DNA of 32,000 bases from assembly GCF_008065095.1 (NCBI RefSeq), contig NZ_CP042911.1:8040001-8072000 (forward strand), written 5' to 3'. Source of the DNA: Gemmata obscuriglobus. Lineage in GTDB: Bacteria > Planctomycetota > Planctomycetia > Gemmatales > Gemmataceae. The notes below the pieces were generated by a model. The model was not told the origin of the DNA. It was given only the letters and a program-made list of their open reading frames with translations, and ran no database searches. Shown in pieces: positions 7,295 to 25,900 of this stretch. The first letter of the stretch is position 1, and every line of letters starts with the position of its first letter. The translations under genes and the position numbers were made by a program.

Positions 7295-8186
7295 TTAGCG
7301 GTGGGTTGGGTTATGCGTTCGTTCGTACTCGTCTGGGGCAACGTAGTCCAGAGCGGAGTGCCGTCGGACCCGGTTGTAGAACGTCTCGATGTACTCGAAG
7401 ATGCTCGCCTTGGCCTGCTCGCGGGTGGCGTAGTCCTCGTGGTGAACGAACTCCTTCTTCAGGCTGGCGAAGAACGATTCCATCGGCGCGTTGTCCCAGC
7501 ACTGCCCGACCCCGCTCACGCTGCACACGATCCGCTCCTCTCGGAGCCGCCGCGGGTCATGTTCGCTCGCGTACGGGCTCCCGCGATCCGAATGCGCCAC
7601 CAGAGCTGAACGCGAAGACCCCTTGAGACGAGCGCCCAGAGCCATCTCCAGGGCATCCACCACCAACCGGCTGGTCGTCGTCCCGTCCATCGACCAACCG
7701 ATCACGCGGCGGCTGAACAGGTCTCCCACGGCCGCCAGGTACAGCCACCCCTCGCGGGTTGGGATGTACGTGATGCCCGCACACCCGCGGGCGTTCGGCT
7801 GGTCTGGGTCGAACGCCCGAGCCAACACGTTCGGGGCCACCGGGTGTGCGTGATTCGAGTCCGTGGTCTGGCGGAATTTCCGCTTGGTTCTTGCGGCGAT
7901 TCCGGCCTCACGCATGACTCGGGCCACGACGTTCACGCGGCACGCGTGCCCGCTCGCCACCAGTTCGGCGTGGATGCGTGGGCTGCCGTACCGGGCCTTC
8001 ACCTCTTCGGTCAACTCCTCGTGTCGAACCTCGGCGGCACGGGGCTCCCGCGACCGCCACGCGTACAATCCGGACCGCGACACCCCCAGCACCCGGCACA
8101 TCCGCACGATCGGCCACTCGGCCTTGCGTACCTCGATCCAGGCGAACGTCAGTTCGTCTGGATCGAGGGACGCCGACGCATTTTGA
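7295..8186 (-). CDS. IS3-family transposase OrfB (rve integrase core), expressed by -1 frameshift from orfA; possibly catalytically inactive
   Basis: The -1 frame reads ...NASASLDPDELTFAWIEVRKAEWPIVRMCRVLGVSRSGLYAW...ITYIPTREGWLYLAAVGDLFSRRVIGWSM...VAHSDRGSPYAS...CWDNAPMESFFASLKKE...FYNRVRRHSALDY. The second D (HSDRG) and the E (MESFF) of the DDE triad are present. The conserved W-x-x-D-ITY is replaced by G-C-A-G-ITY (see findings). The track ORF 7295..8314 includes a non-functional 5' overlap. Confidence 0.8.
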
Positions 8187-8442
8187 GGATGTCGCGCTCC
8201 ATCTCCAGCCGCTTCACCTCGGCCCGCAGCCGCCGGTTTTCGTCCTCGAGCGGTGTGAGATGGCCGGATCCGGGGAACGCACTCGGCCCGTCCTTGGCGA
8301 GCGCCTTCTTCCACGTGTGAAGCCGGTTCTCCGAGACGCCCAGCCGACGCGCGGCCTCCGCAACCGAGAGCTTCTGCTCCGTAACCACCTTCACCGCCGA
8401 GAGCTTGTACTCGGGCGCGTACGTCTTCCGCTTGCCAGCCAT
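8149..8442 (-). CDS. IS3-family transposase OrfA (HTH, leucine-zipper region)
   Basis: 97 aa, ATG at 8442, preceded by the strong SD AAGGGAGA. The sequence MAGKRKTYAPEYKLSAVKVV...LSVAEAARRLGVSENRLHTWKK...ENRRLRAEVKRLEMERDILK is typical of IS3/IS911 OrfA. Confidence 0.9.
   Translation of the reverse strand: MAGKRKTYAPEYKLSAVKVVTEQKLSVAEAARRLGVSENRLHTWKKALAKDGPSAFPGSGHLTPLEDENRRLRAEVKRLEMERDILKMRRRPSIQTN
8179..8187 (-). other. Putative programmed -1 ribosomal frameshift site of the IS3 element
   Basis: On the minus strand, CTC AAA ATG (..ERDILK|M) overlaps the orfB frame C AAA AT -> N-A-S. It lies where IS3 elements carry A AAA AAG, but only an A4 run remains here. Confidence 0.45.
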
Positions 8443-8482
8443 CGGTGTCTCCCTTAATGCTTGGAGTTTACACCGCTTTCCC

Positions 8483-8589: not shown

Positions 8590-11500
8590 CTACCGCCCCG
8601 GCGGGAGTGGTACCAGTTGCACCCGCAGCCCCGGCGCCGGCGGGCCAGCGGCGTGGTACCGGAGTTCGTCGGCCCGTGCCGGCGACCACCCGCGGCCGGT
8701 AGCGGGGCGCGCGGTCCACCCCGGGGCCGGTCGCACGCGCACGTCGACCGACGTGAGCCGGCCGTTCGGGACCGCCGGAACGGCCGGTTCGAACGGCCAT
8801 TCGGCTCCGGGCCTGCCGCCGGGATCGAGCGTCCCGGTCCATTCGAACGCCCCCTCGCGGGCGCCGGCTCGGAGCCACACTTGCACCCGCTCGCCGGACC
8901 GGCCCCACCCGGACACGTCCGGGCCGCGCACCTCCAGCACCTGCACCGCGGGAACCGAAAACTCGAACAGCGCGACCGGTGCCTCGCTGCTCCACGAAAG
9001 ATGCCCGTTCGCGTCGGCGCGGGTCGGCCCGACAGCCCAGGCGGTGGACGAGAGCACCCGGGGGGCCTCACCCGTGCGCAACACGGGCCGCAGTTCGGCG
9101 GCCGCGCCGGGCGCCGGGCGGAACGCCCGCGGCAGTTGGTTCGGGTCGAGCTTCAGGTCCGTTACCGGAACGAAGTCGCGCAGCGCGTCGGCCGAAAAAT
9201 CGATCACCCCGGTGCGGCCGACCTCCTCCACCGCAACCCGCGTCGGGCGGAGCGCGTAGACGGGGTCCGTTTCGCCCTTCACGGACCCGAACACCACCCG
9301 CGGGAACCGCAGCACCGGTTGACGGGTCAGCGGCTTACGCGGCGCGCACTCCAGCACTACCAGGAACCGACCCGCGGACGCCCCCTGGAAGTCGATCTGC
9401 AGTGGACGAACGCCGCCCTTCTCCGGTTCCAGTTGCCAGTCCCGCAGCGCGGGCGCCGTGCCGAGCGCGTCGGGCGCCCGGACCGCGACCCGCAGCACCT
9501 CCAGTTCCGCCGGGACGTCGACCCGCAGCCCCGGAACGGTGCCCTGTTCGACCCGCACGAGGTACGCGGCCGTCAGCTCGGCCCCGCCGTCGGTCACGTC
9601 CCACACGCACGCCTCGCGCACCTTGATCGCGGCGGCCCCGTCCACGCCCTCGCGCCATCGGAGGTGAACGTGCTTCACCGCGCCGAGGTCCGCCTCGATC
9701 GTGGTCCGCTCGCCCGCGGTGGCCGTCGTCTGACGGCCGAGTCGCCCCACCGATTGCGGTTGACGCGCCGCGCCGGGCAGCACCGCTGTCAGCTTCGTGT
9801 CGGGCACGTCTGGCGTCCCGAACCGCAGCTCGCGCTCGGCCCCGGACGCAGTAACGGTCGCGGCGAACCGGATGTCGATCTCGTACCGACCCGCCGCACC
9901 CAGCGGAACCGCGTACGTGTCGGGCTTGGGAGCGGTTGCGAACGCCGGCGCCCCGTTCACCGTCACCCGCTCCAGCCGCGCGTCCCCCAGCGGAAGCGTG
10001 AGCACGTTGTCCCCGGGGCGGAACGCATGCACAACGAACCGTGCCGCGACCCACGCCCCGGTGTCGTCGGCCCGCACGTCGTAAGTCACCGCCGTGACCA
10101 CTGGAGGTAACGGGGCGGGGTGGGCGAGCGCGTCGAGCCGCTCCAGCAGCGCATTCGCAGCGGTCACCTCCTCGGCGCCGCCGGCCCCGGTGCCGATGAA
10201 GACGGTGACCGGAACCGGCGGTTGGGCGATCAACCCGAACGACCCGAGCGCCAGCGTGCCGACCAGGATCCCGGCGGCGACCGCACGGCGGGCGGCAGCC
10301 CACACAAGTGCGCGGGCGAACCCAACGGGCGCGGCGCACAGCACCGGCCACGCGATCCGCGCCCACCACGGCGACCCGAACTCCGCGGCGCCAAGCGCGG
10401 CCGCCGCAACGGCCCCGAACACGAGAGCCCCGCGCGCCCGGCCGGCGCCCACAACCCCGAGCGCAACCACGACCGCGGCCGCCACCGCCGCGACGGCGTC
10501 GGCGGTGCGCACGGCCCCGACCCGTACCCACCCGTCGTCGGACCGGATAACGAGCGCCGGCGGGCCGCTGGTGATCGGCCCGCCGAGCAGCGGCGGGCCG
10601 TCCGCAACGGCCCCGTCCGGGCGCGCCGGCCACCCGGGCAACACCCCATCCGCGAAGCTCCACCACCGGCGCACCGGCGGGTCGCCCGGGACCAGCGGTA
10701 CCGGACTGGTGACCGTCCGGGTCGGCCACCCCGGCTCAGCGGGTAGGCGGTATCGTACCTCGAACCGCACCGCATCGCCGACGGGGATCGGGACCGACAG
10801 CGCTCCGCCACGCACGGCGCACGCGGCCGGGCTAAGCCAGCGCCCGTTGACGCACACCCCGCGCACTTCTGCACGGTGGGGCAGTTCCACTGGCAGCGTA
10901 CCGCCCCCGGAGTCGCGCACGGTCGCCCCGAACGCCGCAACTATCTCATCGGGGCCGCGCACTGCGGTGAGCAAATACGCGCCCGTCGCCTGTAGCCCGG
11001 CCGCCACGGGCGCCGGCCGCACGCGCAGCTCGGCGCCTTTCAGCTCGGCCGTCGCGCGCCCGCGAAGTGCGGCGGCCAGTTCGACCCGGGTGTTCTGGTC
11101 GGCACCGACCAGTCGCGGCACTCCGAGGACAAAATCGTCCGTCCCGAGTGGCGGGCCGGGTGCAACCGTCTCGAGCACGGCGGCGCCGGCCACCGGCCGC
11201 GCGAACCGCACGAGCCAGAACGTGCCCGCGCCACCCGCGCCGACCCGCGCGGGGGCACCGACGAGGTTCGCGAGCCCGTCGATCGTTCCCAGGAAAGGGG
11301 GCTCGATCAGCGCGGGCGGAATCGGGATCGCGCTCGCGGCGTTCTCGGCCGGGCCGGTGAGGCCCCACGTCCGGCCGTCGTCGGGCGGGCCGGGCACGAA
11401 CACCAGCGCCTCGGTGAGCGCGCCGCCGGCCGCGGAAAGAGAAACGCGCGTGGTCGCGAGCCACCGCCCGTCGGCCGTTCCCAGCGACACGACGGCGTCG

Positions 11501-13380
11501 GCTCTCAGCACCGGCGCCGCGGGCGCCAGTACGAGCGTGCCGGCGGGCTCCTTCGCGCGGTAGGTGTAAACGGCCCGGGCGTCGGCGGGAGCATCGGTCG
11601 CGAGCCAACCCCACAGCCCCGCCGGCGTCGCTCCGGCATCGGGTCGAAGCTGTGGCACCCAGGCGGGTGCGACCGAAACGCTGAGCCACCCGTCGCGCTC
11701 GGTCGCGCCGGCCACGGCGAACGTCGGGAACGGCACCGGCGTGCCGGGCCGCGCTCCCGGACCGCGGAACTCGAACCGTAGCTCGGCTTGTTGGCCGGCG
11801 AGCAGCGGGCGCGCCAGTTCGATGACCTGGCCGTCCGCCCACGGGGGGCCGATGTGTGCGACGAGTTCGTCCGTCCCGGCTGCGCCGCGGTCGAGGGCGA
11901 ACCCCGGCGGCGGGCGCACGGTGAGTTGGAAAAGCGCCCCGCGGGTCGCCCGCACGCCCACCCGGGCGACGAGGAGCGATGCCGCCGGTCCCGGGAACCA
12001 CTCCAACCGCTCAAAGGTGTTGAACGCGCTCTCGGGGTTGGTCAGGCGGATCGACGGCATCCGGCGGAACGGGGCGTTGCTCCCGGGGGCCATCAGCGCG
12101 CCGCTGAGCGAAAGTACCCGCGACAGATCGGTCGCCGTAACCGCGTCCGTGAGGTGGTAGTCCCCCGGCGCCCACGACCCGATGTTCAGCCCGGGGGCCA
12201 CTCGCAGTTCAACGGACTCGCTCTCGGTGACGGCGCCGAGCGGGCGGACCGCGGGCAGCGGCGCGTCTGCGTGGCGGGCGGCGTCCGGGAGCGGCGCGAC
12301 CGCGGTGACGAGCACTTTCCCACCGGGGCCGGGCTGCCGCAGAGAGACCGTAACGCGGCGCGGGCCGCCGGGCGCCGCAGGCGGCCCGACGGACCACCCG
12401 GCGCCGTTGTTCGCGATCACCTCGGTGACGCGCAGACCCGGGTCCGCGAGGAGCGTCCACTCTCCCACCGACCCGCGCACCGGGCGCAGCTCGTACTCGA
12501 ACGCCGCGGTGAGTTGGTGCGGGCTCAGCTCGTACTTCGCGACCAGCGCCGCCGTGGCCCCCGCGGACGCCGCAGCCGTGGCGCGGACCGCGAACTCGAG
12601 CCGGGGCCGGCCGCCGAACTGAAACCGCCACCGCTTCCGGCCGGGCTTGCCCTCGGCGGCGAAAGGGCCGGTGAGGAGGGCGTCGGTGAGCGGCGCGGGC
12701 ACCTGGTCGTCCAGCAGTTCCAGATCCAGCGCCGCCGACGCGCACGTCGGCACCTTCAGGTCGAACCGTCGTTCACCGGGTTCCGCGGTGCCCGCGAGGG
12801 ACCACCGAAACTGGAGCGCCTGGCGCCCTTCACGGGTGACCCACACCGCCGGTGCCGCAGCCCCGGCCGGGACGGCGAGCACCGCGGCCCCGTCGGCGCC
12901 CCACCGCGGAGAGCGGACCGCCACGCGCAACGGGTCGAGCGACAGGAACGCGGCGCCGCCGGTCGCGTTCAGCACCCCGAGCGTCGCGGTGCCGACGAGA
13001 TCGCCGCCGTCGATTGCGGCCGTGTAGTTCGCTTCGACGATTCGCGGCGCGTGCTTCGCTCGCGCGACGGCCCGACCCGCGGCCCGCACCCGGGCTTCAA
13101 ATTCGCTGCGCGGCAGGCGGAGAACCGGCCCCGGTTCGAACTCTTTCAGCAACTCGGGAAGTTTGGCGGCCGGGGCGCGGACCCGGCGGATCGGGAACGG
13201 GTCGTCGGCCGGGGTCGCGTCGAGGGCGCCGCGCACGGCGGCACCGACGGGCGGGCGCGGCGCCGCCCCGAGGGCGGCACCGGCCGCGCACGCGAGCGCC
13301 AGAATCAGCCAGCCCGACCTGGACATCATACGCGCCACCGATCCGCTTACTCCCCGTCGGCGCCGCGCCGGCGGGCTCAT
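8590..13380 (-). CDS. Giant (1596 aa) membrane-anchored envelope protein of unknown family; two large ectodomains separated by a central cluster of ~4 TM helices
   Basis: An uninterrupted 4.8-kb GC3-rich frame. It has a signal-like N-terminus (MMSRSGWLILALACAAGAALGA; the alternative ATG at 13329 may be the true start). A central hydrophobic cluster lies at about nt 10215-10510 (AVAAVAAAVVVALGVVGAG / LVFGAVAAAALGAAEF / IAWPVLCAAPVGFARALVWAA / AAGILVGTLALGSFGLIA). The protein is Ala/Gly/Pro/Arg-rich and looks beta-rich. I could not assign any motif to a known family. It starts 21 nt downstream of the preceding gene's stop, giving operon geometry. Confidence 0.85.
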   Translation of the reverse strand: MSPPARRRRGVSGSVARMMSRSGWLILALACAAGAALGAAPRPPVGAAVRGALDATPADDPFPIRRVRAPAAKLPELLKEFEPGPVLRLPRSEFEARVRAAGRAVARAKHAPRIVEANYTAAIDGGDLVGTATLGVLNATGGAAFLSLDPLRVAVRSPRWGADGAAVLAVPAGAAAPAVWVTREGRQALQFRWSLAGTAEPGERRFDLKVPTCASAALDLELLDDQVPAPLTDALLTGPFAAEGKPGRKRWRFQFGGRPRLEFAVRATAAASAGATAALVAKYELSPHQLTAAFEYELRPVRGSVGEWTLLADPGLRVTEVIANNGAGWSVGPPAAPGGPRRVTVSLRQPGPGGKVLVTAVAPLPDAARHADAPLPAVRPLGAVTESESVELRVAPGLNIGSWAPGDYHLTDAVTATDLSRVLSLSGALMAPGSNAPFRRMPSIRLTNPESAFNTFERLEWFPGPAASLLVARVGVRATRGALFQLTVRPPPGFALDRGAAGTDELVAHIGPPWADGQVIELARPLLAGQQAELRFEFRGPGARPGTPVPFPTFAVAGATERDGWLSVSVAPAWVPQLRPDAGATPAGLWGWLATDAPADARAVYTYRAKEPAGTLVLAPAAPVLRADAVVSLGTADGRWLATTRVSLSAAGGALTEALVFVPGPPDDGRTWGLTGPAENAASAIPIPPALIEPPFLGTIDGLANLVGAPARVGAGGAGTFWLVRFARPVAGAAVLETVAPGPPLGTDDFVLGVPRLVGADQNTRVELAAALRGRATAELKGAELRVRPAPVAAGLQATGAYLLTAVRGPDEIVAAFGATVRDSGGGTLPVELPHRAEVRGVCVNGRWLSPAACAVRGGALSVPIPVGDAVRFEVRYRLPAEPGWPTRTVTSPVPLVPGDPPVRRWWSFADGVLPGWPARPDGAVADGPPLLGGPITSGPPALVIRSDDGWVRVGAVRTADAVAAVAAAVVVALGVVGAGRARGALVFGAVAAAALGAAEFGSPWWARIAWPVLCAAPVGFARALVWAAARRAVAAGILVGTLALGSFGLIAQPPVPVTVFIGTGAGGAEEVTAANALLERLDALAHPAPLPPVVTAVTYDVRADDTGAWVAARFVVHAFRPGDNVLTLPLGDARLERVTVNGAPAFATAPKPDTYAVPLGAAGRYEIDIRFAATVTASGAERELRFGTPDVPDTKLTAVLPGAARQPQSVGRLGRQTTATAGERTTIEADLGAVKHVHLRWREGVDGAAAIKVREACVWDVTDGGAELTAAYLVRVEQGTVPGLRVDVPAELEVLRVAVRAPDALGTAPALRDWQLEPEKGGVRPLQIDFQGASAGRFLVVLECAPRKPLTRQPVLRFPRVVFGSVKGETDPVYALRPTRVAVEEVGRTGVIDFSADALRDFVPVTDLKLDPNQLPRAFRPAPGAAAELRPVLRTGEAPRVLSSTAWAVGPTRADANGHLSWSSEAPVALFEFSVPAVQVLEVRGPDVSGWGRSGERVQVWLRAGAREGAFEWTGTLDPGGRPGAEWPFEPAVPAVPNGRLTSVDVRVRPAPGWTARPATGRGWSPARADELRYHAAGPPAPGLRVQLVPLPPGR

Positions 13381-13401
13381 GGCGTTTGGTAACCGAAGCT
13401 G

Positions 13402-16400
13402 CTATGCGCCGCTGCCTGTGGGGGCGGGTGTGCCGGCGCCCCCCGGGCGGCTCGGCGCCGACGGCGACGGCGGGATCGTCGCGCTGGCGGTCGGCGCCGG
13501 GAGCGTGCGCGTGAACCCGGGCAGGTACCGGACCCGGCGCCGCACCTCCCACCGCACCGCCGCTTGCACCGCGACCGCGGCCAACCCGAACACGAGCCCC
13601 GGTTGCGCCGCCGCAACCGCTTGGGCCGCCGGCTGCGGGTACAGCACCACCGCCACCGCGAACCCGCCTCCCAGCGCCGCAATCGTCAGCGCCGCGGCCA
13701 CCGGGTTGAGCCACGCCAGCAGCACCACGAGCAGGAACACCACCAGCGAGCACACGACCAGGACCGCGGTCCACGGGGCGCGGGCCACCCGCACCGGCTC
13801 GGGGCCGAGCTGTCGCGCCGCCAGCGGCTCGCCCTCTTGGAGCGGTGCCGGGGCGCCCGACAGGGGCTCGTCCCCGGACGTGAACCAGCGCTCCAGCTCG
13901 GCCCGCGGGGCGGCCGACGGCGCGAACACCGGCCCGCGCCACCGCCACCGTAGCTCCGGGCGGGTCCGCCCCCCGAGCAGCAGCGGGGCCGAACCCGACG
14001 GCTCGGTGATCAGCCAGCGGACCGGACCGGAGTACGCCGCGGCCGTCACCCGCGGCGGGACGTAGAGCGTTTCCCCGACCGCCTGGCGCGTTCCGGGTAG
14101 CGCGTACTGCACCTCCAGAACCGCGGCGCGCCCGGCCGGCAGTTCGGGCCGGGATACGCGGAACAGCCGCCCGCCGTTCGCCTCACCGGCCGGCTGTAAC
14201 GGGGCGGTCAACCCGTCCAGACGGGCCGTCGGGTTGGGACCGGTTTCGTTCGGCAGCCACACCTCGACCGCCGGGGCGAGCCACCGGACGAGCCGGAACC
14301 GCGCGCGGTAGCTGACGCTCCCGTCCTCGGTGGCCCCCGCTTCGACCAACGCGCGATCGATCCACACGGCGGCGGCCGATTCCGGCGGCGCGGGGTGCAA
14401 CTCCACCGCGAACGGGTGCTCCGCGGACGCGCCGAGTGTGAGGGCAGGGAGCGTGTCGCGCTCGGGAATCACTTCAGGGGGCAGTTCGCGCCACCTCGGG
14501 GCGGCGGCGCTCACCGTTCGCCCCGTCATCGAGTTGACCCACACGCGAACCGTCGCCTCGGTGCGCGCCGCCTCGGCCGGCCAAAACAGCCCCACCGGCA
14601 CCGCCACCGGCCCGTCGGTACGTTCGGGCAGCGGGAGCGCGAAACTGATCCGTACGGTGTGATCGGCCGTGTCGGCGATCGGAACGAACGACCACACGCC
14701 GGGTGAAAGGGCGTCGAGGGCGGGAACGGTCTTCAGCCCCAGCGCGTCGGCGGGGCCGCGGAGCCGCACCGGGCGCGAGAACCCGTCAACCGCGCGCAAC
14801 CGGAGGGTTTGAGACACCACCAACTGGCGCTCGCCCACGGTCACGTCGGCGCGCACCTCTGCGGTCACATCTGGGCGGGGCTGGCGCCAGCTCAGCGCGA
14901 CCCCGGCGGCCCCGAGTTCCGCCCGACCGGTTACGGAAACGGGCACCTTTGGCGGCGTGCCGTCTGTCCCGGGCACGGCCCCCAGCGCCGCGCCGGCCGC
15001 CGCGATGTGATCACCTTCGCGGTCGCGCCAGGAGCCACGCAGCTCCAACCCGTCGGGTACGACTGCGGTGACGGTCGTGTCCCGCTCCAGGGCCTTTGGG
15101 AACCGCGGCAGCGGGACGGTCGTTGCGCTGCTACCCGCCGGCACCTCCACGGCGCCGACCAGCACCACGCTGAACGGCTGTTTGGTGGGGCGGGCGAGGC
15201 GCACCGTGACCGGGAGCCACGCGCCATCCCCCTTCCCCTGCCCGACGCCCTGCACGGCCTCGGGATCGAACTCGGACTCCAGCCCCCGCCACTCGGCCGG
15301 CACCTCGACGGTGAGGGCGTCGAGTTCCGTGCGGATCGGCCTGACGTTGATTTCGGCCCGCACGCGCCAGCTCGCACCGCTCTCGGCGAGATCGAGGCGG
15401 TACACCGGCCGCACCCGCACCGCGCCCTCGACGGGAAGCGCTTCGACGGTCAGCAGCGGAACGTCCACCGGAGCCGAACCCGTCGGGCCGGTGGTGAGCT
15501 TGAACTGTGCGACGCTGAGCTCCTCGTCCGCGCCCCCCCCGGCCGGGTCCGCACGCCGGAGGTCCGGCCCGTGTCGGAATATGAACCGGTGGTGCGGTCC
15601 GGTCTTCACGGTCACCGTCCCGGTCTGCCGCAGCACGTCGAGTGCCCCGAACGGGCCGACCGGGACCGGCTCCGACATCGTTCCGGCCTTCGGCCGCGAC
15701 TGGCGCACCACGGCGGTGACCAGCCAGTCGGCACCGGTCGAGTCGGCGGGCAGTGCGATCCTCCAAACGGGCTTGCCCGGCTCGCCCGGTCGGATGACGA
15801 CGGGCAGTTGAGCGGGACCGGTCTCCCCGGCCGCCGCGACCCGCTCCACGCTCACATCGGCGGCCGGCGGCGCGACGAGCTTTAGCTCGCGCCCGGGGCC
15901 GCGCACCTTGAACTTCGCCGTCGATTCGGCGAACCCGTCGGTTAACACGACGCCCACGTCGAGGTCGGCGCTCGACACCTGATCCGCGGGCTGCGCGGCC
16001 GCCGCGGGCGGGTCCCAGACCACCTCCAGCGATTCCACCGGGCCGAGCGGGAAGCCGCCCCCGGCGTCGTTCGGGGCCAGTTGCTTCGCGTCCACGGGGA
16101 AGCGCCGCGGTTCGGTCAGCTTGGGCGGGTCCGGCGTTTTGGTGATGAGGGCGAGGCGCTTGACGTCACCCGGCATTTCGACGGCGAGCTTCGTGACCGG
16201 CGCACGCGGGAGCCCGAACTCGAACCCGATCTCCGCCTTCGTGCCGCGCGCCGTGACCGGGGCCTCGAGGTCGAGAACGAGGGCGTGGGCTCCGGCGGAC
16301 TCGACTAGCACCGCGAGCCCGTCGTCGGCGGTTTCGAGTACCGGCTGCTTGGCCCCGTCGAGCGCCGCGCCGGTGGCGAACGCGCGGCGCCCGCCCAGCG

Positions 16401-16911
16401 CGACCGCCGCGTTGGGCTGGGCGGTGCGGAACGTGTACGTGAGCTTCAGTGCGGCGACGAGCTGGTCGCCGCGCTTCTCGAGGCGGCCGCCGATGACGCA
16501 CTCGTGCGGCGCAACCGGTTTGCGAGCAGCGAGTTCCTTTCTCAGGGCCTCGGCCCGCTCGGACAACTTTTGAAAGTCCTGCGGGCTGAGCGTCACACCG
16601 TCCGCCACCCCGAGCAGGAGGAACGTCCCGTCCGGGAGTTTCACCGCGAGCGACTTGGCGTCGGCCTTATCGCCCTTGGCTTCGGGCAACTTCTTGGACG
16701 GTTCCCCGACGGGCGGTTGAGCAGATAGGGCGGCCGAAGCGATTATCAGGGTGGCGAGAGCGACAAAGCCTGTTCTGCGGCTGGACGCGGGAGGGGAGAA
16801 CGCCACTCTCCCGCGCGCATTCGAGTCGCAGGCGGGTTCCGCAACGCGGCTCACACCCCGTTTAAGAAACGGGGGGCCGTGAGGGATAAGGTTCTCCGCG
16901 TGTGCGGGCAT
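13402..16911 (-). CDS. Giant (~1169 aa) membrane-anchored envelope protein of unknown family, paralogous to the N-terminal two-thirds of the 8590..13380 product
   Basis: The track ORF starts at a TTG (16962). I prefer the first ATG at 16911 (MPAHAENL...). It has a signal/anchor segment (TGFVALATLIIASAALSAQPP), a ~980-aa ectodomain, then a ~3-TM cluster at about nt 13550-13785 (WTAVLVVCSLVVFLLVVLLAWL / VAAALTIAALGGGFAVAVVLY / GLVFGLAAVAVQAAV). The tail is Pro/Ser/Thr-rich (LPAPTASATIPPSPSAPSRPGGAGTPAPTGSGA). Confidence 0.85.
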   Translation of the reverse strand: MPAHAENLIPHGPPFLKRGVSRVAEPACDSNARGRVAFSPPASSRRTGFVALATLIIASAALSAQPPVGEPSKKLPEAKGDKADAKSLAVKLPDGTFLLLGVADGVTLSPQDFQKLSERAEALRKELAARKPVAPHECVIGGRLEKRGDQLVAALKLTYTFRTAQPNAAVALGGRRAFATGAALDGAKQPVLETADDGLAVLVESAGAHALVLDLEAPVTARGTKAEIGFEFGLPRAPVTKLAVEMPGDVKRLALITKTPDPPKLTEPRRFPVDAKQLAPNDAGGGFPLGPVESLEVVWDPPAAAAQPADQVSSADLDVGVVLTDGFAESTAKFKVRGPGRELKLVAPPAADVSVERVAAAGETGPAQLPVVIRPGEPGKPVWRIALPADSTGADWLVTAVVRQSRPKAGTMSEPVPVGPFGALDVLRQTGTVTVKTGPHHRFIFRHGPDLRRADPAGGGADEELSVAQFKLTTGPTGSAPVDVPLLTVEALPVEGAVRVRPVYRLDLAESGASWRVRAEINVRPIRTELDALTVEVPAEWRGLESEFDPEAVQGVGQGKGDGAWLPVTVRLARPTKQPFSVVLVGAVEVPAGSSATTVPLPRFPKALERDTTVTAVVPDGLELRGSWRDREGDHIAAAGAALGAVPGTDGTPPKVPVSVTGRAELGAAGVALSWRQPRPDVTAEVRADVTVGERQLVVSQTLRLRAVDGFSRPVRLRGPADALGLKTVPALDALSPGVWSFVPIADTADHTVRISFALPLPERTDGPVAVPVGLFWPAEAARTEATVRVWVNSMTGRTVSAAAPRWRELPPEVIPERDTLPALTLGASAEHPFAVELHPAPPESAAAVWIDRALVEAGATEDGSVSYRARFRLVRWLAPAVEVWLPNETGPNPTARLDGLTAPLQPAGEANGGRLFRVSRPELPAGRAAVLEVQYALPGTRQAVGETLYVPPRVTAAAYSGPVRWLITEPSGSAPLLLGGRTRPELRWRWRGPVFAPSAAPRAELERWFTSGDEPLSGAPAPLQEGEPLAARQLGPEPVRVARAPWTAVLVVCSLVVFLLVVLLAWLNPVAAALTIAALGGGFAVAVVLYPQPAAQAVAAAQPGLVFGLAAVAVQAAVRWEVRRRVRYLPGFTRTLPAPTASATIPPSPSAPSRPGGAGTPAPTGSGA

Positions 16912-16984
16912 GGGTCGTTCCCGTTGGCGACGGCTCCGCCATCTCCAACTCAGTATACCCAAACCCCGCAGTCGATTTGCCCCA

Positions 16985-18463
16985 TCAAACGGGAATCGGT
17001 TCCCCGAATCCCCCGGTCGACCTGCGCAGGTCGTGCGCGCGGCCTTCTCGGCACCCCAGGACGGCGCACAGGGCGGCGGCGAGCAGCACGAACGCGCCAG
17101 TGTGGGTGCCGTACACCAGCGCGAGGTCCGCGCCCCGACCGCCGAGCAGCCCAGGCCCGGCCATCAGTACGAACGAAGCGCCCAGTGCCCCGATTACGAA
17201 GATGCGCACGCGGCGGGAGATGTTCGCCACCGCAACCGCCCAGGCGAGGGCCGCCAGCGGGAGCAGCAGTACGACCGCGTGGTGCTTCCAGGTCCGCTCG
17301 CTGAAGAGGAGCATCCCGACGCAGATGAGCCCGCACTCGGCGGCGACGCGCCAGCCGTGGCGCGGGTCGGTCGGGCCGCGCACCGGCGCCCGGCACAGCA
17401 CCACCACCGCGAGCGCGAACAGGGCCGTGAGCGCCTTCACCACGACCCACGCGGCGGGCCGCCCGATGTCCGTAAGGTTGTGGTACTCGGCGGGCGTGGG
17501 GATGTCGCCTTCCGGCGTCTTCAGGTACGTAATGTAGGACGGGCTGTTGGTGAACAGCCGGTACACGAACCCTGTGACCGCCTGGTTCGGGTGCTCGGTC
17601 GTGATCTCTCCCTTGAGCAGCGGGCGCTCGACCATGAGCGCGTACCAGTCCCCCATCAGCTCGCGGTTGCGGTCGAAGCCGAACACCGCGCCCGGCACCA
17701 CCACGAGCCACAGCACCAGACCGGCGAGCGAGGCGGCGAGCGCCCGCCAGCACCGCTTCCACGCGAAGTACGCGACGAACAGCGCGGGGGTCACCTTGCA
17801 GGCGATCGCGAGCGCGAGGGTGAGCCCGGCGAGCGTGTCGAGGCGGCGGCGGAACGCTTCCAGCGTGGCCGCGACCAGGAACAGGATGAAGATGTTGACG
17901 TTGTTGTGCGACAGGTCGCCGAGCAGGGCCGGTAGGCACACGACGATCGCCGCGGCTTTCGCCAAATCGAGGCGGGCGGAGCGCGTGAGCCCACCCGCAT
18001 CACGTTCGCGGCCCGCCTGCGGCGGCGCGGGCTCGCCGGGCTGTTCCCCGCTCGCCCGGCACAGCCGGAACGCCCACACCACGGCCAGCGCCGCGAGCAG
18101 CGCTTTCGCGTAGAACCAGCCCAGCGCCCCGGCCGCCGGCGGCAGTGCCGCGAACGGCCGCAGCAGCACCGCCATGATCGGCGGGTTCGGGTACTCGTTG
18201 CGGCCGACGTAGATGTTCTCCCCGGCGAATACCCCGTTCACCATCTCGCGCCACCGCAGGAACGCCGACCGGGTCTGCTGTCCGGTGTCACCCGGCTTGG
18301 CGATCTTGGCCGCGTACTTCACGCTCATCAGCACGACCACGACAGCCAGCAGCCCGACGAACCCGGCCCGCACCCGGGCGGGATTCGTTGCGTGAGCGGT
18401 GCGGAGCCATCCGGCGAACCGCGAGAACGACAACAGACGCACGCTCCACCCCCTCCCGGCCAC
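16985..18463 (-). CDS. Polytopic membrane glycosyltransferase, GT87 / DUF2029-like (polyprenol-phosphate-sugar dependent GT-C type)
   Basis: 492 aa with a GTG start at 18463. There are more than 10 hydrophobic segments. Motifs I associate with DUF2029/GT87 (PimE-like) proteins are present: early-loop YPNPPIMAVLLRPF, DLSHNNVNIFILFLV, and LAIACKVTPALFVAYF. The family call is from memory and needs an HMM search. It is the first gene of the minus-strand operon. Confidence 0.7.
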   Translation of the reverse strand: MAGRGWSVRLLSFSRFAGWLRTAHATNPARVRAGFVGLLAVVVVLMSVKYAAKIAKPGDTGQQTRSAFLRWREMVNGVFAGENIYVGRNEYPNPPIMAVLLRPFAALPPAAGALGWFYAKALLAALAVVWAFRLCRASGEQPGEPAPPQAGRERDAGGLTRSARLDLAKAAAIVVCLPALLGDLSHNNVNIFILFLVAATLEAFRRRLDTLAGLTLALAIACKVTPALFVAYFAWKRCWRALAASLAGLVLWLVVVPGAVFGFDRNRELMGDWYALMVERPLLKGEITTEHPNQAVTGFVYRLFTNSPSYITYLKTPEGDIPTPAEYHNLTDIGRPAAWVVVKALTALFALAVVVLCRAPVRGPTDPRHGWRVAAECGLICVGMLLFSERTWKHHAVVLLLPLAALAWAVAVANISRRVRIFVIGALGASFVLMAGPGLLGGRGADLALVYGTHTGAFVLLAAALCAVLGCREGRAHDLRRSTGGFGEPIPV

Positions 18464-18610: not shown

Positions 18611-20539
18611 ATGAACGATACGCCGACCGGCGGATTCCGCGAGCAGCCCGCGTGGCTGGTGGCCGCGGCGGTGGTTGTGGTGGCACAAACCGGGCTGGCG
18701 CTGGGGCTGTTCGGCCCCGGCCGCCCGTGGGCCGCGGTGACCGACGACCGCCCGATTGTGTCGGGGCGGCACCCGCTGCACCTGTACCACGGGACGCTCG
18801 GCGCCGCGGCGTTCCGCGACCACCGGAACGCCACCTGTTACGACCCGGCGTTTCAGGCCGGGTACCCCAAAACCCCGGTCTTCGACGGCGGCAGCCGGCC
18901 GGCGGAGCTGTTCGCACTGGTGGGCGGCCCCGGGTACCGCCCGGCGGCGTACAAGGTGGGCGTGCTCGTCTTCCTGATGCTAATCCCCGGGGCCTTCATC
19001 GCGGCGGCCCGCGGGGCGGGGCTGCCCGCCGGCCCCGCGGTGCTGACCGGGTGCTTCGGGGTGCTGCTCGCGTGGTGCCCGGCGGTCCGGGCGATGCTCG
19101 AGGAGGGGCAACTCGACCTGCTCGGCGCCGGGCTGGCGGCGGCGGTGTTCGTGCCGTGGCTCGGCCGGTACGCGCGATACCCGGGGCCGGAGCCGTGCCT
19201 GGTGCTCGCGGGGCTGGCGCTGGCGGGCTGGTACGCGCACCCGCTGGTGTGGGTCGGGCTGCTCCCGGTGATGTTCGTGTTCTACCTCGTGTTCGCGCCG
19301 CAGCACGGCCCGGGGTGGCACCTCGGGCTCGCCGGGATCGTTTCGTTCGGCGTCGTGCCCAACACGTGGTGGCTTGTCGACTGGGGCAAATACTGGTGGC
19401 TCCGGCAGCCGTCGTCGAGCGACCACATCCCGTTGCCGTCGTGGGAGGCGGTGCTGGGCGCCCCGGCCGACTATGCGGCCCTGTGCGGGGGCCTGCCCGG
19501 CGGCGCGGTGGTGCCGCTGGTCGCGTTCGGCGGGCTGGTGCTGCTGTGGGCCGGCGGGCACCGGGCCGCGGCGTGGTTGTCCCTGCTGACCGCGGTGCTG
19601 GCGGTGTGCGCCGCGCGGCTGGCGGCGACGTGGCCGCGGGTCCCCCCGGAGGTGCCTGCGCGGGTGGCCCCGTTCGCGCTGGCGCTGCTCGCCCCGGCGG
19701 CGGCGTTCGGCGTGTGGGAGGTGATGCGGCGGGCGCGGGCGGCTGGTGCGGGCGTGGCGCTCTGCGCGGCGGCGCTGTTCCTGGTGGGCTGGGCCGACGG
19801 GCCGGGCGCGCCGTTAGCGAACCTGATGGGCGTGCGCACGCAACCGTTCCTGTTGGGACTCACGCCCGAGCAGCAGCGGCTCGTGGGCGCGCTCCGCGAG
19901 CACACCACGCCCGCGGCCCGCGTCTTGTGGGAGGAGGCGGGCGAGCGGCCGGGCGGGAACTGGTCCGTGCTGCTGCCGCTGTACACCGGCCGGGCGTTCC
20001 TAGGGGGGCTGGACACCGACTCGGAGATCGACCACGGGTACTGCGGGCTCCGGAACCAGTGCCTGAGCGGGCGCCCGCTCGCCGAGTGGACCGACAAGGA
20101 GCTGTCCGAGTTCTGCCGCTGGTACAACGTGGGCTGGGTGGTGTGCCGCACCGCGGGCACCGCGGAGCGGTGGGAGCGGTGCGCCGAGGTGAACGAGCGG
20201 GGCGAGAAGAAGCCGCTCGCGAGGGCCGTCACGCGGTTCACCGAGAACGGCCAGCCCGTGGTGCTGTTCGCGCTCGACCGCCCGCTCACGTTCGTGCTCG
20301 ACGGGCGCGCCGTACTGGAATCGGCGGACGCGAAGCGAATTGTGCTGACCAACGTCGAGCCGAACGCACTCGGCTACGTCGACCTGAGCTTCCACGATTT
20401 CGGTGGGCTGCACGCGTACCCGAGCTACGTGAAGCCCCTCAAGTGTTCCAACCCGGTGACGCGGGACCCGGTGGACCACATCCGGCTCTCCGTGCCCGGC
20501 CCGGTGCCCCGCATCGTGCTCGTGTGGGAGCACCCGTAA
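18611..20539 (+). CDS. Polytopic membrane protein (~11 TM) with a ~200-aa C-terminal soluble domain; possible GT-C-fold glycosyltransferase (speculative)
   Basis: The start is set at ATG 18611 (MNDTPTGGFREQPAWLVAAAVVVVAQ...). The track start at 18392 would overlap the divergent gene. It has many hydrophobic helices and a first loop carrying acidic and His residues (AVTDDRPIVSGRHPLHLYHG...YDPAFQAGYPKTPVFDGG). The C-terminal domain is globular (…DKELSEFCRWYNVGWVVCRT…RIVLTNVEPNALGYVDLSFH…). I recognised no defined family. Confidence 0.8.
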   Translation: MNDTPTGGFREQPAWLVAAAVVVVAQTGLALGLFGPGRPWAAVTDDRPIVSGRHPLHLYHGTLGAAAFRDHRNATCYDPAFQAGYPKTPVFDGGSRPAELFALVGGPGYRPAAYKVGVLVFLMLIPGAFIAAARGAGLPAGPAVLTGCFGVLLAWCPAVRAMLEEGQLDLLGAGLAAAVFVPWLGRYARYPGPEPCLVLAGLALAGWYAHPLVWVGLLPVMFVFYLVFAPQHGPGWHLGLAGIVSFGVVPNTWWLVDWGKYWWLRQPSSSDHIPLPSWEAVLGAPADYAALCGGLPGGAVVPLVAFGGLVLLWAGGHRAAAWLSLLTAVLAVCAARLAATWPRVPPEVPARVAPFALALLAPAAAFGVWEVMRRARAAGAGVALCAAALFLVGWADGPGAPLANLMGVRTQPFLLGLTPEQQRLVGALREHTTPAARVLWEEAGERPGGNWSVLLPLYTGRAFLGGLDTDSEIDHGYCGLRNQCLSGRPLAEWTDKELSEFCRWYNVGWVVCRTAGTAERWERCAEVNERGEKKPLARAVTRFTENGQPVVLFALDRPLTFVLDGRAVLESADAKRIVLTNVEPNALGYVDLSFHDFGGLHAYPSYVKPLKCSNPVTRDPVDHIRLSVPGPVPRIVLVWEHP

Positions 20540-20751
20540 GCACCGGGACTTGGGGCCACGTCCTTTGGCGGGCCGGGGGGATCTCGGCAACCCTCCGCCC
20601 GCACACTTTCCGGCCAGTTTGTCTCAAGCGCTATTGACCGGCTGCGGCGCGCGGGTATGCCCACGTCCCAAGCAGAAACACTGTTCGCGAGGGCCGGTCC
20701 GGTTCCGGGGGGAATCGGGCCGTTCGGCGCGCCACTGTCTAGGACGGACGC

Positions 20752-22758
20752 ATGAACCGGGCGTGGGAACTCGCAGCGGGGATCAGCCGGCGCCACTTCC
20801 TCGCGTGGTCCGCCGCGGTCGGGGCGGCCGGGCTGGCCGGGTGCAAGAGCACCGAAGCCGCCAAGCTCCAGACCCCGCGGTCGCAGATCGGGGAGGACCC
20901 GGCGGACCCGGAGACGGTCCCGACCGTCGGTTCCAAGACCTCGGTGGGCAACACCGAGGCGCTGACGGTGAGCGGGGTCGGGCTGGTGTACAACCTGCCC
21001 GGCACCGGCAGCAGCCCGGCCGCGGGCAGCTGGCGCACGATGCTCGAGGACAGCCTGAAGAAGCTCAAGCGGGACCAGACGCTCAACCTGCGCGAGCTGC
21101 TCGACGGGCCGGGCCGCACCACCTCGCTGGTTATCGTGTCGGCGCAGATCCCGCCGGGGGCGCGGGAGGGCGACCCGATCGACGTGCAGGTCACCCTGCC
21201 CGACGACAGCAAGACCACCAGCCTGCGGGGCGGCGAGCTGTTCGCCACCGAGCTGATCACGTTCGACACCACCGGCAACATCCGGGCGCAGGTGCGCGGC
21301 CCCGCGGCGCGGGGCGGCAACCAGCTCGTCGCCGGGAGCGTGTGGGCGCGGGCGCAGGGCCCGCTCGTGGCCGGCAACATCGTCCTGGACGGGGCGGACG
21401 GTAAGGAGGCCAAGCCCGACACCGACGCCGAGGGCCGCGCGCTGTACCGGGCCGGGTTCATCGCCGGCGGGGCCAAGGTCGCGCACACCCGCCCGTACTA
21501 CCTGTTGCTGAACTCGGGCGACCAGAACCCGCGCGTCGGGGCCGCCATCGCCGAGCGGATCAACACCACCTTCCACACCACTTCGGACCCGCGGTTCAAG
21601 GTCGCCGACGCGAAGGACCGCGAGCTGATCCTGCTGAGCGTGCCGGCCGCGTACCGGCACAACCACTACCGGTTCCTGCTGGTCGCCCGGCAGGTGCCGT
21701 ACAACCCGGTCGGCGCGAACAGCGTGTACCGCCAGAAGCTCGAAGAGGAGCTGATGGACCCGGCCACCGCGCTCACCGCGGCGGTGAAGCTCGAGGCGCT
21801 CGGCGGGGACTGCCGCCGGAGCCTCAAGATCGGCCTGGAGAGCGCGTCGCCGTGGGTCCGGTTCGCGGCCGCCGAGGCGCTCGCGTACCTGGGGCAGACG
21901 GACGGCGCCGCCGAACTCGCCCGGCTCGCCGAGGACCACCCGGCCCTCCGCGCCCAGAGCCTCAAGGCGCTCGCGTCGCTGGACGACGCCGCCGGCACCG
22001 ACAAGCTGGTGGAGATGCTGACCAGCGGCGACGCCGAACTCCGCCACGGGGCGTTCATCGCCCTGCGGCTCGCCGACGAGCGGCACCCGGCGCTGGGCGG
22101 GGCGCTCATGAACCGCTCGTACTACCTGCACCGGGTCGGCGGCCGCGGGGCGTCGGCGGTCCACCTCACCGCCGCGGGGCGCAGCGAGATCCTGGTGTTC
22201 GGCGACAACGTGAAGCTCCGCGGGCCGATGCCACCGGTGCCGCTGGGCAGCGAGTTCACGGTGTCGGTGCCGGCCGGCGACGAGGGCGCGAAGGTCACCC
22301 GGGTGGTGCGCCTCAAGGACCGCGACCCCGAGGTGAAGGAGGCGCGCTGCGGCGCCGACCTGAGCGCGGTGCTCGGCGCGCTGGCGAACCTGGGCGGCGG
22401 GTACTCGGAGGCCGTCGAACTGGTCCGCCGGTCCGCCCGGGCGGAGGCGCTCTCGGCCCCCGTGGTGATGGACGCGGTGCCGCGCGAGATGAGCATCCAG
22501 CAGCTCGCCGGTTTCGCCAAGGTGGACACGACCCTGGCGAAAGCGAACGTGGAGGTCGCGAAGGTGGGTACGGTGCAGCCCGCCGTGGACGCCAACGGGT
22601 TCGAGGTGCCGGTGGACCAGGGGCCGCTGGTCGCCCCGGCCGGGGCGGCGCTGCCGAAACAGGCGCTGAACCGCAACCCGGGGCGCCTGTTCGGGCCGAG
22701 CCGGGCGTCCGACGCCCCCATCCTCGACCCGGCCGTGGTCCCGGCCGGGGGGCGGTAG
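20752..22758 (+). CDS. FlgI (flagellar P-ring)-like protein with Tat signal, lipobox, an inserted HEAT-repeat module and a C-terminal extension
   Basis: ATG at 20752 with AGGA 9 nt upstream. The Tat motif is SRRHFLA and the lipobox is LAGC. FlgI-like blocks compared with E. coli FlgI from memory: [16 protein letters not shown] ~ [61 protein letters not shown] ~ [56 protein letters not shown] ~ [46 protein letters not shown] ~ [33 protein letters not shown]. HEAT/PBS-lyase-like repeats lie at about nt 21720-22100 ([30 protein letters not shown]). Confidence 0.8.
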   Translation: [668 protein letters not shown]

Positions 22759-22912: not shown

Positions 22913-25900
22913 ATGTTGAAGCGCCTCGAACTCGTCGGGTTCAAGTCCTTTGCCGACAAAACGCGGTTCGACTTCGCGCCCGGGGTGACCGGGGTGGTCG
23001 GGCCGAACGGGTCCGGCAAAAGCAACGTCGTCGACGCGGTGCGGTGGATCCTGGGCGAGCAGTCCCCGAAGAGCCTGCGCGGCGGCGAAATGGCCGACGT
23101 GATCTTCAACGGCTCCAGCTCGCGCAAGAGCCTGGGCATGGCGGAGGTGACGGTCGCGTTCGACAACGCCCGGCGGCTGCTGGCGGTCGACGCCGACGAG
23201 GTGCAGCTCACCCGCCGGGTGTACCGCGACGGCACCGGCGAGTACCTCATCAACGGCCAGATGTCCCGGCTGAAGGACCTCAAGAACATCTTCCTGGGTA
23301 GCGGCGCCGGGGCCGGCGGGTACACGATCATCGCCCAGGGGCGCGTCGACGAGATGCTCCAGGCGTCGACGAAGGACCGGCGCGCGATCTTCGACGAGGC
23401 CGCCGGGATCAGCCGGTTCAAAGCCGACAAAAACGAAACGCTCCGCAAGCTCGCGTCCGTCGAGCTGAACCTGACGCGCTCGAAGGACAAGCTCGACGCG
23501 CTCGACGGCCAGCTCCGCACGCTGCGCCTCCAGGCCACGAAGGCCCAGAAGTACAAGGAGCACTCGGACCGGTTGCGGGAGCTGCGCGTCGGGCTGGGGG
23601 CGCGCGAGTACCGCGAGCTCACCGCGGCGCTGGCGACCGAGCAGGGCGCCCTCGCCGCGCTGAAGGCGGAGGTGAGCGGCGCCACGTCGGAGGCCGAGCA
23701 GCTCGAACACCAGGCCGCGCAGCTCGACTGGCAGGTGACCCGGGGCGAGGAGGCGCTGCGGCACCACGAGGCCCGGCTGGCCGAGGCGCGGCAGCAGCTC
23801 GCGGGGTTCGAGGCGTCGCTCAAGCACGACCGCGCCGCGGCGCAGAACTTGGGCGCCGAGCTGCTGAAGGTCGGGCGCCAGCGGGCCGATCTGGGCTACC
23901 GCCTGAAGGGGCTGGAGGCGGATTCGGTCCGCGCCGCCGCGGAGAGCGCCGCGGCCGAAGGGCGGCTCACCGACGAGCGGGGCCGCGCGGACGAGGTGAG
24001 CGACGCGCTGGCGGCGGTCGTGGCGCGCCTCGCGGACCTGGAGCGGGCGCAGGCCGAGGACCTTCAGCAGCACATGGAGCTGGTGCGCCAGGCGGCGTCC
24101 GGCCGGTCCACCGCCGACGCCACGCTCGCGCAAGTGAACCGGCTCCAGAGCGAGTACACGCGGCGGCTGGCGGCCCGCGAGCACCGCGCCGCGCACCGGG
24201 CCACGCTCACCCACGCGCTCGACGGCCTGTCGCAAGAGGACGCCGACGTGCAGGCCCGGCTCGCCGCGGCCCGCGAGCAGCTCGACGACCTGACCGCGGC
24301 ACGCGACACCCTCACCGAGCAACTCGGTGAGGGGCAGGCGCGGCTCGAGGGGCTGCGCGTCGAGCAGGGCGCGCTCCGCGCCCGCATGGAGGTGCTCGAA
24401 GACCTCGAGCGGTCGCTCGAGGGGTTCGGCACGGGGGTCGCGGCGGTGTGGCGCCGGCTCGAAGCGGAGGCCGCGGACGATTACACCCCGACCGAGTTGA
24501 GCGCCGCGGTGGTCGGGCTGGTTGCGGACCTGCTCACGGTGCCGCGCGAGGTGGCCCCGCTGGTCGAGTTGGCCCTGGGAGATGCCGCCCAGCGGTTCGT
24601 CGTTCGGTCGCCGGAGGCGGTGGACGCGGTGGCCGCCGCGGTGGGCGAACTGACCGGGCGGGTCGGGTTCGTGCCGCTGAGCTTTTCCGCCACGCACGCC
24701 GGCTCGGCCGACGCGAGCGGCGAACACGGCGGCGCAGGCGGGGGGCCTTCCCTTGCGGCGCTTGTGACCTGCGACCGACCGCACTGCGCCGGGCTGCCCG
24801 CGCAGCTCCTCGGCCGCGTCCTGATGGCGGACACGCTCGCGGACGCGCGGTGGCTGGTCGCGCTGCACCCCGGCCACCGGGTGGTCACCCGCAGCGGCGA
24901 GCTGCTCGAGCCGGACGGCACCCTCACGGTCGGCCCGCTGCGGGGCGAGGCCGGGCTGGTGTCGCGCAAGAGCGAGCTGCGCGAGCTGCGCGAGCAGTTC
25001 CGTGCCACGTCGGAACTCGTCGCGGGGGCGGAAGTCGAACTCGCGGACCTCCGGCGCCGGGCCGAAGCCGCCGAGGGCACCATTGAGGCCGTCGAGGCCG
25101 AGATCGCGCTCCTCTCGGACGAGGCCGGCGGCCTGCTCCAGCGGATCGCGCGGCAGCGCCAGCAGGTCGAGCACCTGGACGCGGACATCGAGCTGATCGA
25201 GGCCGACTGCCGGACCCTCGAACAGCAGGTGCAAGAGGGCGAGGCGGCGTGGAGCGCCGCCCGGCTCGCGGCGGAGGACGCCGAGCGCGCCGCGGCGGAG
25301 CTGGAGTCCCGGCTCGCGGAGGTGAAGCGCGCGCTCGCGGCCGGCGCCGCCGACCGCACCGCCCGCGAGCAGGCCCACACCGCCGCACAGGTGGCCCTGT
25401 CCCGCGCCGCCGCGGACCGGGACCGCGCCCGGGAGCGCGCCGCCCAGCTCGAAGCCGACATCCGCAAGCGCAAGATCGAGGCCCTGGATCTGGCCGCCGC
25501 GGACCGCAACGCCCGCGGGCGGCTCGCGGACTGCACGCTCGCGGCCCTCCGCGCGAGTGCGGGCCAGGCCGACGCGTACGGCGAGAAGGAGTCGCGCGAG
25601 CGGCTCGCGGCGGAGCTGTCGGCGAAAGGCGCCGCGGACCGGGCGGACCGCGACCGGGTACGCGCCCGGCTCCAGCAGCTCCGCCACGGGTGGCAGGAAA
25701 AGCAGGCCGCCGCGCACGCCCGCGAACTCGCCGCCCACGACCTCGGCGCCCGGCTCGCCGCGCTCGGCCAGCGGATCCGCGAGGACTACGGGATCGAACT
25801 GGCCGAACTGGCGGGCGGCGCGCTCCGGCCCGCCGAGGGCTCCAGCGCGGACATTTCGGGCACCGAAGACGCTCGTGCCGACACGACCAGTTCGGAACGC

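Follow-up and report, generated by a model that had tools for sequence, protein, structure and literature searches.

Two adjacent minus-strand genes of Gemmata obscuriglobus, here called B and C, lie in the 32,000-nucleotide stretch of contig NZ_CP042911.1 that we analysed (positions 8,040,001 to 8,072,000; hereafter the window, to which all coordinates refer), and comparison of sequence profiles confirms that the giant proteins they encode are tandem paralogues with three copies of a head module and two copies of a membrane-proximal module. The data also strongly support C being a fusion of two B-like units, the second of which is truncated in the Gemmata clade, and structure models name the predicted fold as an M1-peptidase N-domain-like, or Ost1-like, beta-sandwich. 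Paralogy as such is ordinary biology; what is new is the fusion model, together with a predicted Ost1-like fold encoded beside a GT-C glycosyltransferase gene in an undescribed Gemmatales family. For a large uncharacterised family without a Pfam or NCBIfam model there is now a map of the domains, along with a predicted topology, an evolutionary origin and a named fold, and two "hypothetical proteins" become testable objects.

The genes are as follows, with B residues numbered from TTG 16962 and C residues from ATG 13380:

13402..16911, minus strand: gene B, 1169 amino acids (aa) from the annotated ATG at 16911; the open reading frame (ORF) stays open to the TTG at 16962 (1186 aa)
8590..13326, minus strand: gene C, 1578 aa from the ATG at 13326, the likely start; the ORF stays open to the ATG at 13380 (1596 aa)

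With GTG 16806 as an alternative start, the signal peptide of B would be 29 aa long and like those of homologues, and GobsT_67950 of G. obscuriglobus is 100% identical to C. All of the peptides quoted in the original prediction, an earlier reading of this DNA made from its letters and ORFs, were found in place in the two minus-strand ORFs (13402-16962 and 8590-13380). A Pfam scan of B and C matched no family at E <= 0.1, no NCBIfam model matched either protein, and a literature search found no description of them.

Paralogy and domain layout of B and C

We collected 119 homologues of B and 89 of C, aligned the full-length ones, and built family profiles for hhalign from 108 B and 78 C homologues. 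BLASTP of B against C detected a single match, between B 169-354 and C 1111-1276 (26% identity, E 6e-6), which falls in one of the three head pairs. Profile-profile comparison, which the original prediction had proposed in the form of hidden Markov model (HMM) alignments, related the two proteins over most of their length, and the head windows it had suggested were significantly similar in all three pairings:

B 198-1142 against C 157-1033: E 2.6e-16, probability 98.7%, 824 columns, extending across the transmembrane (TM) cluster
B 66-389 against C 1037-1312: E 2.5e-7, Viterbi alignment
C 96-623 against C 1080-1594: E 2.1e-9, 493 columns
B head against C N-terminal head: E 6.6e-6
B head against C C-terminal head: E 1.8e-8
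C N-terminal head against C C-terminal head: E 2.8e-7
B against C membrane-proximal module: E 2e-9

These scores stood well above controls that keep composition. Reversed profiles of the module pairs gave E 0.025-0.17, and 60 column shuffles per pair gave a null score of about 15 +/- 2.5 compared with observed scores of 44-61 (z of 11.5, 18.5, 15.4 and 17.8 per module pair, the last being the membrane-proximal pair). Plain HMMER agreed, as the HMM of the C C-terminal head matched B 145-275 at 2.6e-7 and such cross-matches recurred across many homologues. Secondary structure was compared for two of the three heads, the B head (105-291) and the C C-terminal head (model residues 120-291), which have a nearly identical order of strands and helices; agreement was 74% at hhalign-aligned positions versus 40-54% out of register.

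That the similarity is an artefact of Ala/Gly/Pro/Arg-rich composition in a 75% G+C gene pair, with the modules unrelated, draws on the low identity (about 26%), the detection of a single head pair by BLASTP, and a strong bias in which Ala makes up 15-18% of B and C. This explanation is ruled out by the reversed and column-shuffled profile controls and keeps a negligible chance, given also that the alignments are collinear across 824 and 493 columns, that secondary structure agrees at aligned positions, and that the B and C models share their top structural neighbours.

By profile matching, moreover, the membrane-proximal module is a remote copy of the core of the head: the two align by hhalign at E about 1e-3 to 2e-4, and in several homologues the membrane-proximal HMM finds a match within the second head at 1e-6. 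The resulting map is:

16720..16806, minus strand: B signal peptide, aa 53-81, from hydropathy; ends LSA, then QPP
15976..16653, minus strand: B head module, aa 104-329, from the HMM envelope, AlphaFold secondary structure and hhalign to both C heads
13969..14325, minus strand: B membrane-proximal module, aa 880-998, from hhalign against the C module and the HMM envelope
13528..13773, minus strand: B TM cluster of three helices, aa 1064-1084, 1087-1107 and 1109-1145, from hydropathy and AlphaFold; aligns with C TM1-3 (hhalign)
13405..13527, minus strand: predicted B cytoplasmic tail, a disordered Pro/Ser/Thr-rich stretch with predicted local distance difference test (pLDDT) scores below 50
12481..13203, minus strand: C N-terminal head module, aa 60-300, from the HMM envelope and hhalign against the B head and the C C-terminal head
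10621..10950, minus strand: C membrane-proximal module, aa 811-920, from hhalign to the B module and the HMM envelope
10294..10512, minus strand: C TM1-TM3, aa 957-978, 982-1001 and 1004-1029, homologous to B TM1-3
10222..10278, minus strand: C TM4, aa 1035-1048 plus AQ at 1052-1053, from the AQPP motif and the alignment of B 66-389 with C 1037-1312
9481..10203, minus strand: C second (C-terminal) head module, aa 1060-1300, from BLASTP to B (E 6e-6) and hhalign (E 1.8e-8)
8593..9480, minus strand: rest of the C second ectodomain, aa 1301-1596, duplicating C aa ~330-623; model pLDDT about 90

The layout first proposed for C, a B-like unit followed by four TM helices and a second ectodomain of about 540 aa, thus passed the profile-profile tests with their controls. 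Two of its details had to be redrawn. The membrane-proximal modules do precede the TM clusters, not "just before" them as had been thought but across a gap of 35-65 aa, and the head, which is indeed repeated, had been given too small an extent, since the piece duplicated within C is about 530 aa long.

AlphaFold2 models built with the family alignments covered B (mean pLDDT 83.4, 699 residues above 90) and C 941-1596 (mean pLDDT 87.8). In both, the ectodomains are all-beta and the hydrophobic clusters are helical, with three TM helices in B and four in C; these clusters and their positive-inside pattern are conserved across the B and C families, which bears out their earlier reading as TM helices. 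In both modelled heads, short strands lead into a helix (B 127-146; C 1076-1086), after which the strand order is shared, the B head having two to three short strands before its helix and a beta-sandwich after it (pLDDT about 80-94). The Arg-rich helix said to precede each head holds for the N-terminal copy of C and fails for the other two.

The topology prediction combined hydropathy with the positive-inside rule and with the helices of the AlphaFold models. Hydropathy places an N-terminal signal peptide on both proteins, and basic residues follow B TM3 (RRRVRY) and occupy the TM1-TM2 and TM3-TM4 loops of C; the signal peptides and the placement of these residues therefore put all three ectodomains in the periplasm and the B tail in the cytoplasm. 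This agrees with the earlier expectation that both C ectodomains lie on the same side of the membrane and that the Pro/Ser/Thr-rich tail of B is cytoplasmic. Taken together, the models strongly support periplasmic all-beta ectodomains carried on homologous three-helix anchors.

Two conserved motifs lie outside the ectodomains. RRRVxYLPGFTR (B aa 1141-1152, ~13507-13542) spans the end of the third TM helix and the start of the tail, with R1141, R1143, P1148, G1149, F1150 and R1152 near-invariant in the B family, and the near-invariant GPPWW (C aa 1002-1006, ~10363-10377) falls in the predicted periplasmic loop joining TM2 and TM3. Their position suggests that the TM clusters do more than anchor the proteins passively.

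Origin of C and conservation of the B-C pair

The proposed origin of C is a tandem duplication followed by gene fusion, in which a signal peptide was reused as a TM helix. The end of the B signal peptide is conserved across the B family (A81 0.67, Q82 0.83, P83 0.69, P84 0.83), and the end of C TM4 even more so across the C family (A1052 0.92, Q1053 0.95, then PP); the Q of this AQPP motif is not found in the N-terminal signal peptide of C itself. Because AQPP ends both the B signal peptide and C TM4, TM4 appears to derive from the retained B-type signal peptide of a second B-like gene. The duplicated piece in the C-terminal half of C matches C 96-623.

Longer C homologues with a second, terminal TM cluster support the fusion model. 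In Tuwongella-like lineages, C homologues measure 2150-2452 aa and have a much longer second ectodomain that ends in a second TM cluster, and two of them give a weak match to a second membrane-proximal module:

Long C homologues: P0201, P0199, P0202-P0206 and P0208; locus L002, 10001-17359

The terminal TM cluster is kept in most C homologues outside the Gemmata clade; within that clade, where C measures 1546-1632 aa, it has been lost and no such cluster follows the second ectodomain. Two short C-family matches were also seen, P0207 (1205 aa), whose only modules are an N-terminal head and a membrane-proximal module ahead of a terminal hydrophobic segment, and P0195 (1035 aa); both may represent fragments, or else C-type units without the fusion. 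A further possibility, suggested by the conserved A-Q|PP site, is that C is cleaved after TM4, which would free a soluble periplasmic ectodomain.

An IS3-family insertion sequence lies directly downstream of C (window 7295-8457, minus strand), in which an HTH_Tnp_1 ORF starts at ~8441 and the ORF at 7295-8314 encodes an rve integrase (NCBIfam transpos_IS3, E 4e-92). We rejected the idea that this element had cut C short, since a C of this length that lacks the terminal TM cluster is usual in the Gemmata clade. A terminator scan 3' of C returned a single weak match that was no better than chance.

A profile search of 1.84 billion representatives returned 2198 cluster representatives at E <= 1e-3. 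The named sources among the family matches are all Gemmatales (Gemmata, Frigoriglobus, Fimbriiglobus, Limnoglobus and Tuwongella), an order of planctomycetes noted for its extremely invaginated membranes and for division by budding; a few labels of metagenome-assembled genomes (MAGs) are probably mis-assigned.

In a neighbourhood survey of 50 loci, C was the gene after B in about 30, that being every locus whose sequence continues past B except for two in MAGs; this strongly supports B-C as an obligate two-gene module conserved across Gemmatales. The exceptions are Fimbriiglobus MAG contigs (L038 790-3984 and L045 6447-9635) in which ~9 kb 3' of B hold no detectable C; an assembly or binning problem or a real rearrangement could account for them. 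The gene upstream of B in the window is:

16985..18442, minus strand: GT87 (GT-C fold) glycosyltransferase, Pfam PF09594, E 4.6e-27

GT87, B and C are all co-oriented; 73 nt separate the GT87 stop from the B start, the gap from B to C is 21-75 nt, and in the Gemmata clade GT87 is probably the first gene of a GT87-B-C operon. In 17 of 41 loci GT87 sits directly upstream of B in the same orientation, including a distant lineage (L047) in which B is only 36% identical. A ThyX (Thy1) gene, divergent and upstream of B, occupies the position in 11 loci without GT87 there (L002 5114-5941, L003 5526-6350 and nine others), probably as conserved local synteny without a functional link. Among the other conserved neighbours sought, only ThyX recurs; B and C alone are kept throughout.

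Three plus-strand genes lie divergent from GT87-B-C in the window, none of which is kept beside B and C in other genomes:

18652-20637, plus strand: 642-aa protein with no Pfam match
20752-22758, plus strand: 668-aa protein with TAT-signal, FlgI and HEAT_2 matches
22913-26608, plus strand: 1231-aa SMC protein

The G+C content of the window ranges from 66 to 76%, being 75-76% inside B and C (9000-15000) versus 66-70% in the flanks (1-8 kb and 26-32 kb), and the dominant residues of the two proteins are Ala, Gly, Pro, Arg and Val. The long plus-strand ORFs antisense to them (e.g. 8617-10110, 10094-11563 and 11788-13392) are probably high-GC artefacts.

Candidate functions

We propose that B and C would each be exported by an N-terminal signal peptide, would extend into the periplasm as a long chain of all-beta sandwich domains, and would be held in the cytoplasmic membrane by the homologous three-helix cluster. 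Each repeated unit would begin with a head of the beta-sandwich fold shared by the M1-aminopeptidase N-domain and the Ost1/ribophorin I lumenal domains. In C, the signal peptide of the second unit would survive as TM4 and return the truncated second ectodomain to the periplasm, and B and C together may form a heteromeric inner-membrane complex.

When the models were searched against the PDB with Foldseek, as the original prediction had suggested for naming the fold, Ost1/RPN1 chains filled the first eight places for B (E 5e-8 to 2e-6) and, for the C C-terminal model, places 1-6, 8 and 9 (E 1.3e-11 to 1.4e-7), and these chains were verified as RPN1 and Ost1. Each alignment runs to ~430 columns at a Foldseek probability of 1.0, and for the yeast Ost1 and oligosaccharyltransferase (OST)-B RPN1 chains this takes in all of the modelled target; the target-normalised TM-score of 0.19-0.31 and the root-mean-square deviation (rmsd) of 15-22 A refer to whole-model alignments, not to single domains.

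Since Ost1/RPN1 is the top fold match of two independent models, GT87 is encoded next door, and the predicted topology is Ost1-like, we tentatively favour a role of B/C as a non-catalytic periplasmic scaffold that could hold or present an acceptor, either a polypeptide or an envelope glycan, to the periplasm-facing GT-C enzyme GT87. By analogy, such a scaffold would mirror Ost1 flanking STT3 in the eukaryotic OST. The proposal is supported by the kinship of GT87 to eukaryotic lumenal GT-C enzymes, DUF2029/GT87 proteins having been reported among their closest prokaryotic relatives (PMC4973528).

Several observations weigh against a scaffold for GT87. The gene is not adjacent to B in 24 of the 41 loci, including those of Tuwongella, Limnoglobus and Fimbriiglobus, and the TM-scores to Ost1 are so low globally that the likeness is local or domain-wise only. 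Integrin legs, MG-domain proteins and mu-homology domains score as well, as chains of multiple beta-sandwiches match easily. B and C, at 1100-1600 aa, exceed Ost1 two- to fourfold in size and have many more domains, with 3-4 TM helices compared with one. Sequence methods offered no link either: Pfam gave none between B/C and Ost1 (Ribophorin_I, PF04597, was not matched at E <= 0.1), sequence and profile searches of the PDB returned chance-level matches only (e.g. CD4, E 0.087), and hhalign of the B/C modules against an RPN1 profile reached a probability of <= 1.2%, that profile being a shallow, low-diversity one with vertebrate sequences only among the best 120 matches listed.

The strongest alternative, possible if on balance unlikely, is that B/C have no role in glycosylation and serve only as a structural strut or spacer in the periplasm, with GT87 lying beside them incidentally. 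In the enlarged, invaginated periplasm of Gemmatales, legs of chained sandwiches anchored in the cytoplasmic membrane might then determine how wide this space is or tether it at that width, or might connect the membrane with peptidoglycan or with the outer membrane. Ectodomains of 500-950 aa of chained beta-sandwiches, the structural matches to integrin alpha legs and MG domains, the confinement of the family to Gemmatales among named sources and the lack of GT87 from most neighbourhoods all fit such a strut, as does the second ectodomain of C in most non-Gemmata lineages, which is anchored at both ends as a membrane-to-membrane arch; the conserved cytoplasmic motif of B could bind a partner. 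However, Pfam and NCBIfam scans detected no peptidoglycan- or outer-membrane-binding domain, Ost1/RPN1 ranked above leg-type proteins for both models, and the linkage to GT87 persists across lineages as far apart as that with 36% identity in B.

If the scaffold idea is true, B/C would provide the first case in bacteria of a GT-C enzyme that has large accessory subunits built of beta-sandwiches, and would bear on the origin of multi-subunit OST-type complexes; if it is false, the pair is still a candidate lineage-specific factor of envelope architecture. To our knowledge, OST architecture of the eukaryotic type is not known from bacteria. A bolder extension of the scaffold idea, which we regard as improbable, is that Gemmatales possess a multi-subunit, periplasm-facing GT-C glycosylation machine in which B and C flank GT87, so that it would be a bacterial counterpart of OST architecture reached by convergence or very deep homology; bacterial OSTs are reported to be single chains (PMC11417166).

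Common ancestry, with B/C as true but extremely diverged homologues of Ost1/ribophorin I, we consider quite unlikely. It would account for Ost1/RPN1 being the best PDB match, over the whole modelled target, of both independent models, for the like orientation in the membrane, and for the GT-C enzyme encoded next to B/C. Profile-profile and HMM tests were negative, though; when PDB sequences were searched with the B and C profiles by hmmsearch, no OST chain came up at E <= 10. By sequence, OST1 is reported only from eukaryotes and from TACK and Asgard archaea (PMC11417166). The adjoining enzyme is GT87 and not, as in OST, an STT3/PglB-type GT66, and the fold predicted for B and C is also that of M1 peptidases, TAF2 and VIT domains. 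The likeness of B and C to Ost1 is thus one of predicted fold and orientation, and neither protein can be shown to belong to the Ribophorin_I family. A Pfam search of four distant C homologues likewise gave no relevant family at E <= 1, with two unrelated matches at chance level (E about 0.2).

Comparison with known systems

Behind Ost1/RPN1, Foldseek listed integrin alpha legs and then single-domain matches of 200-250 columns. The latter include the N-domain of M1 aminopeptidases (PepN, ERAP1, LTA4H and tricorn F3), TAF2 and the VIT region of ITIH1, which resemble B and C in the fold of a single domain (about 200-250 columns, 252 for ITIH1; rmsd 5.8-13 A; Foldseek probability 1.0). Judged by size, these matches most probably correspond to the head module. 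Unlike M1 aminopeptidases, B and C have no catalytic domain, and the domain is repeated and tethered to the membrane; an M1 aminopeptidase was rejected because HExxH and GxMEN are absent from both proteins and Peptidase_M1 is not matched in Pfam. Pfam likewise matched neither a VIT domain (PF08487) nor its usual vWA partner in B/C, which leaves a likeness to ITIH1 at the level of fold only.

Integrin alpha legs and MG-domain proteins (complement C3/C5, alpha-2-macroglobulin and CD109) share with B and C a long chain of beta-sandwiches that ends at a membrane anchor. Their Foldseek matches (E 1e-4 to 5e-8) have TM-scores of about 0.1 and ranked below Ost1. Unlike integrins, the B/C models have no beta-propeller head, and the integrin and MG families, which are eukaryotic or come from other bacterial groups, have no sequence similarity to B/C.

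The closest comparison is with Ost1/RPN1 (PF04597), a non-catalytic subunit of the eukaryotic OST. B and C differ from it in having no ribosome-binding helical bundle. They are like it in carrying what are predicted to be tandem beta-sandwiches on the lumenal or periplasmic side, N-terminal to a membrane anchor, and in the predicted order of signal peptide, lumen-equivalent domain, TM segment and cytoplasmic tail, and the setting is like that of OST in that a GT-C glycosyltransferase is encoded beside them.

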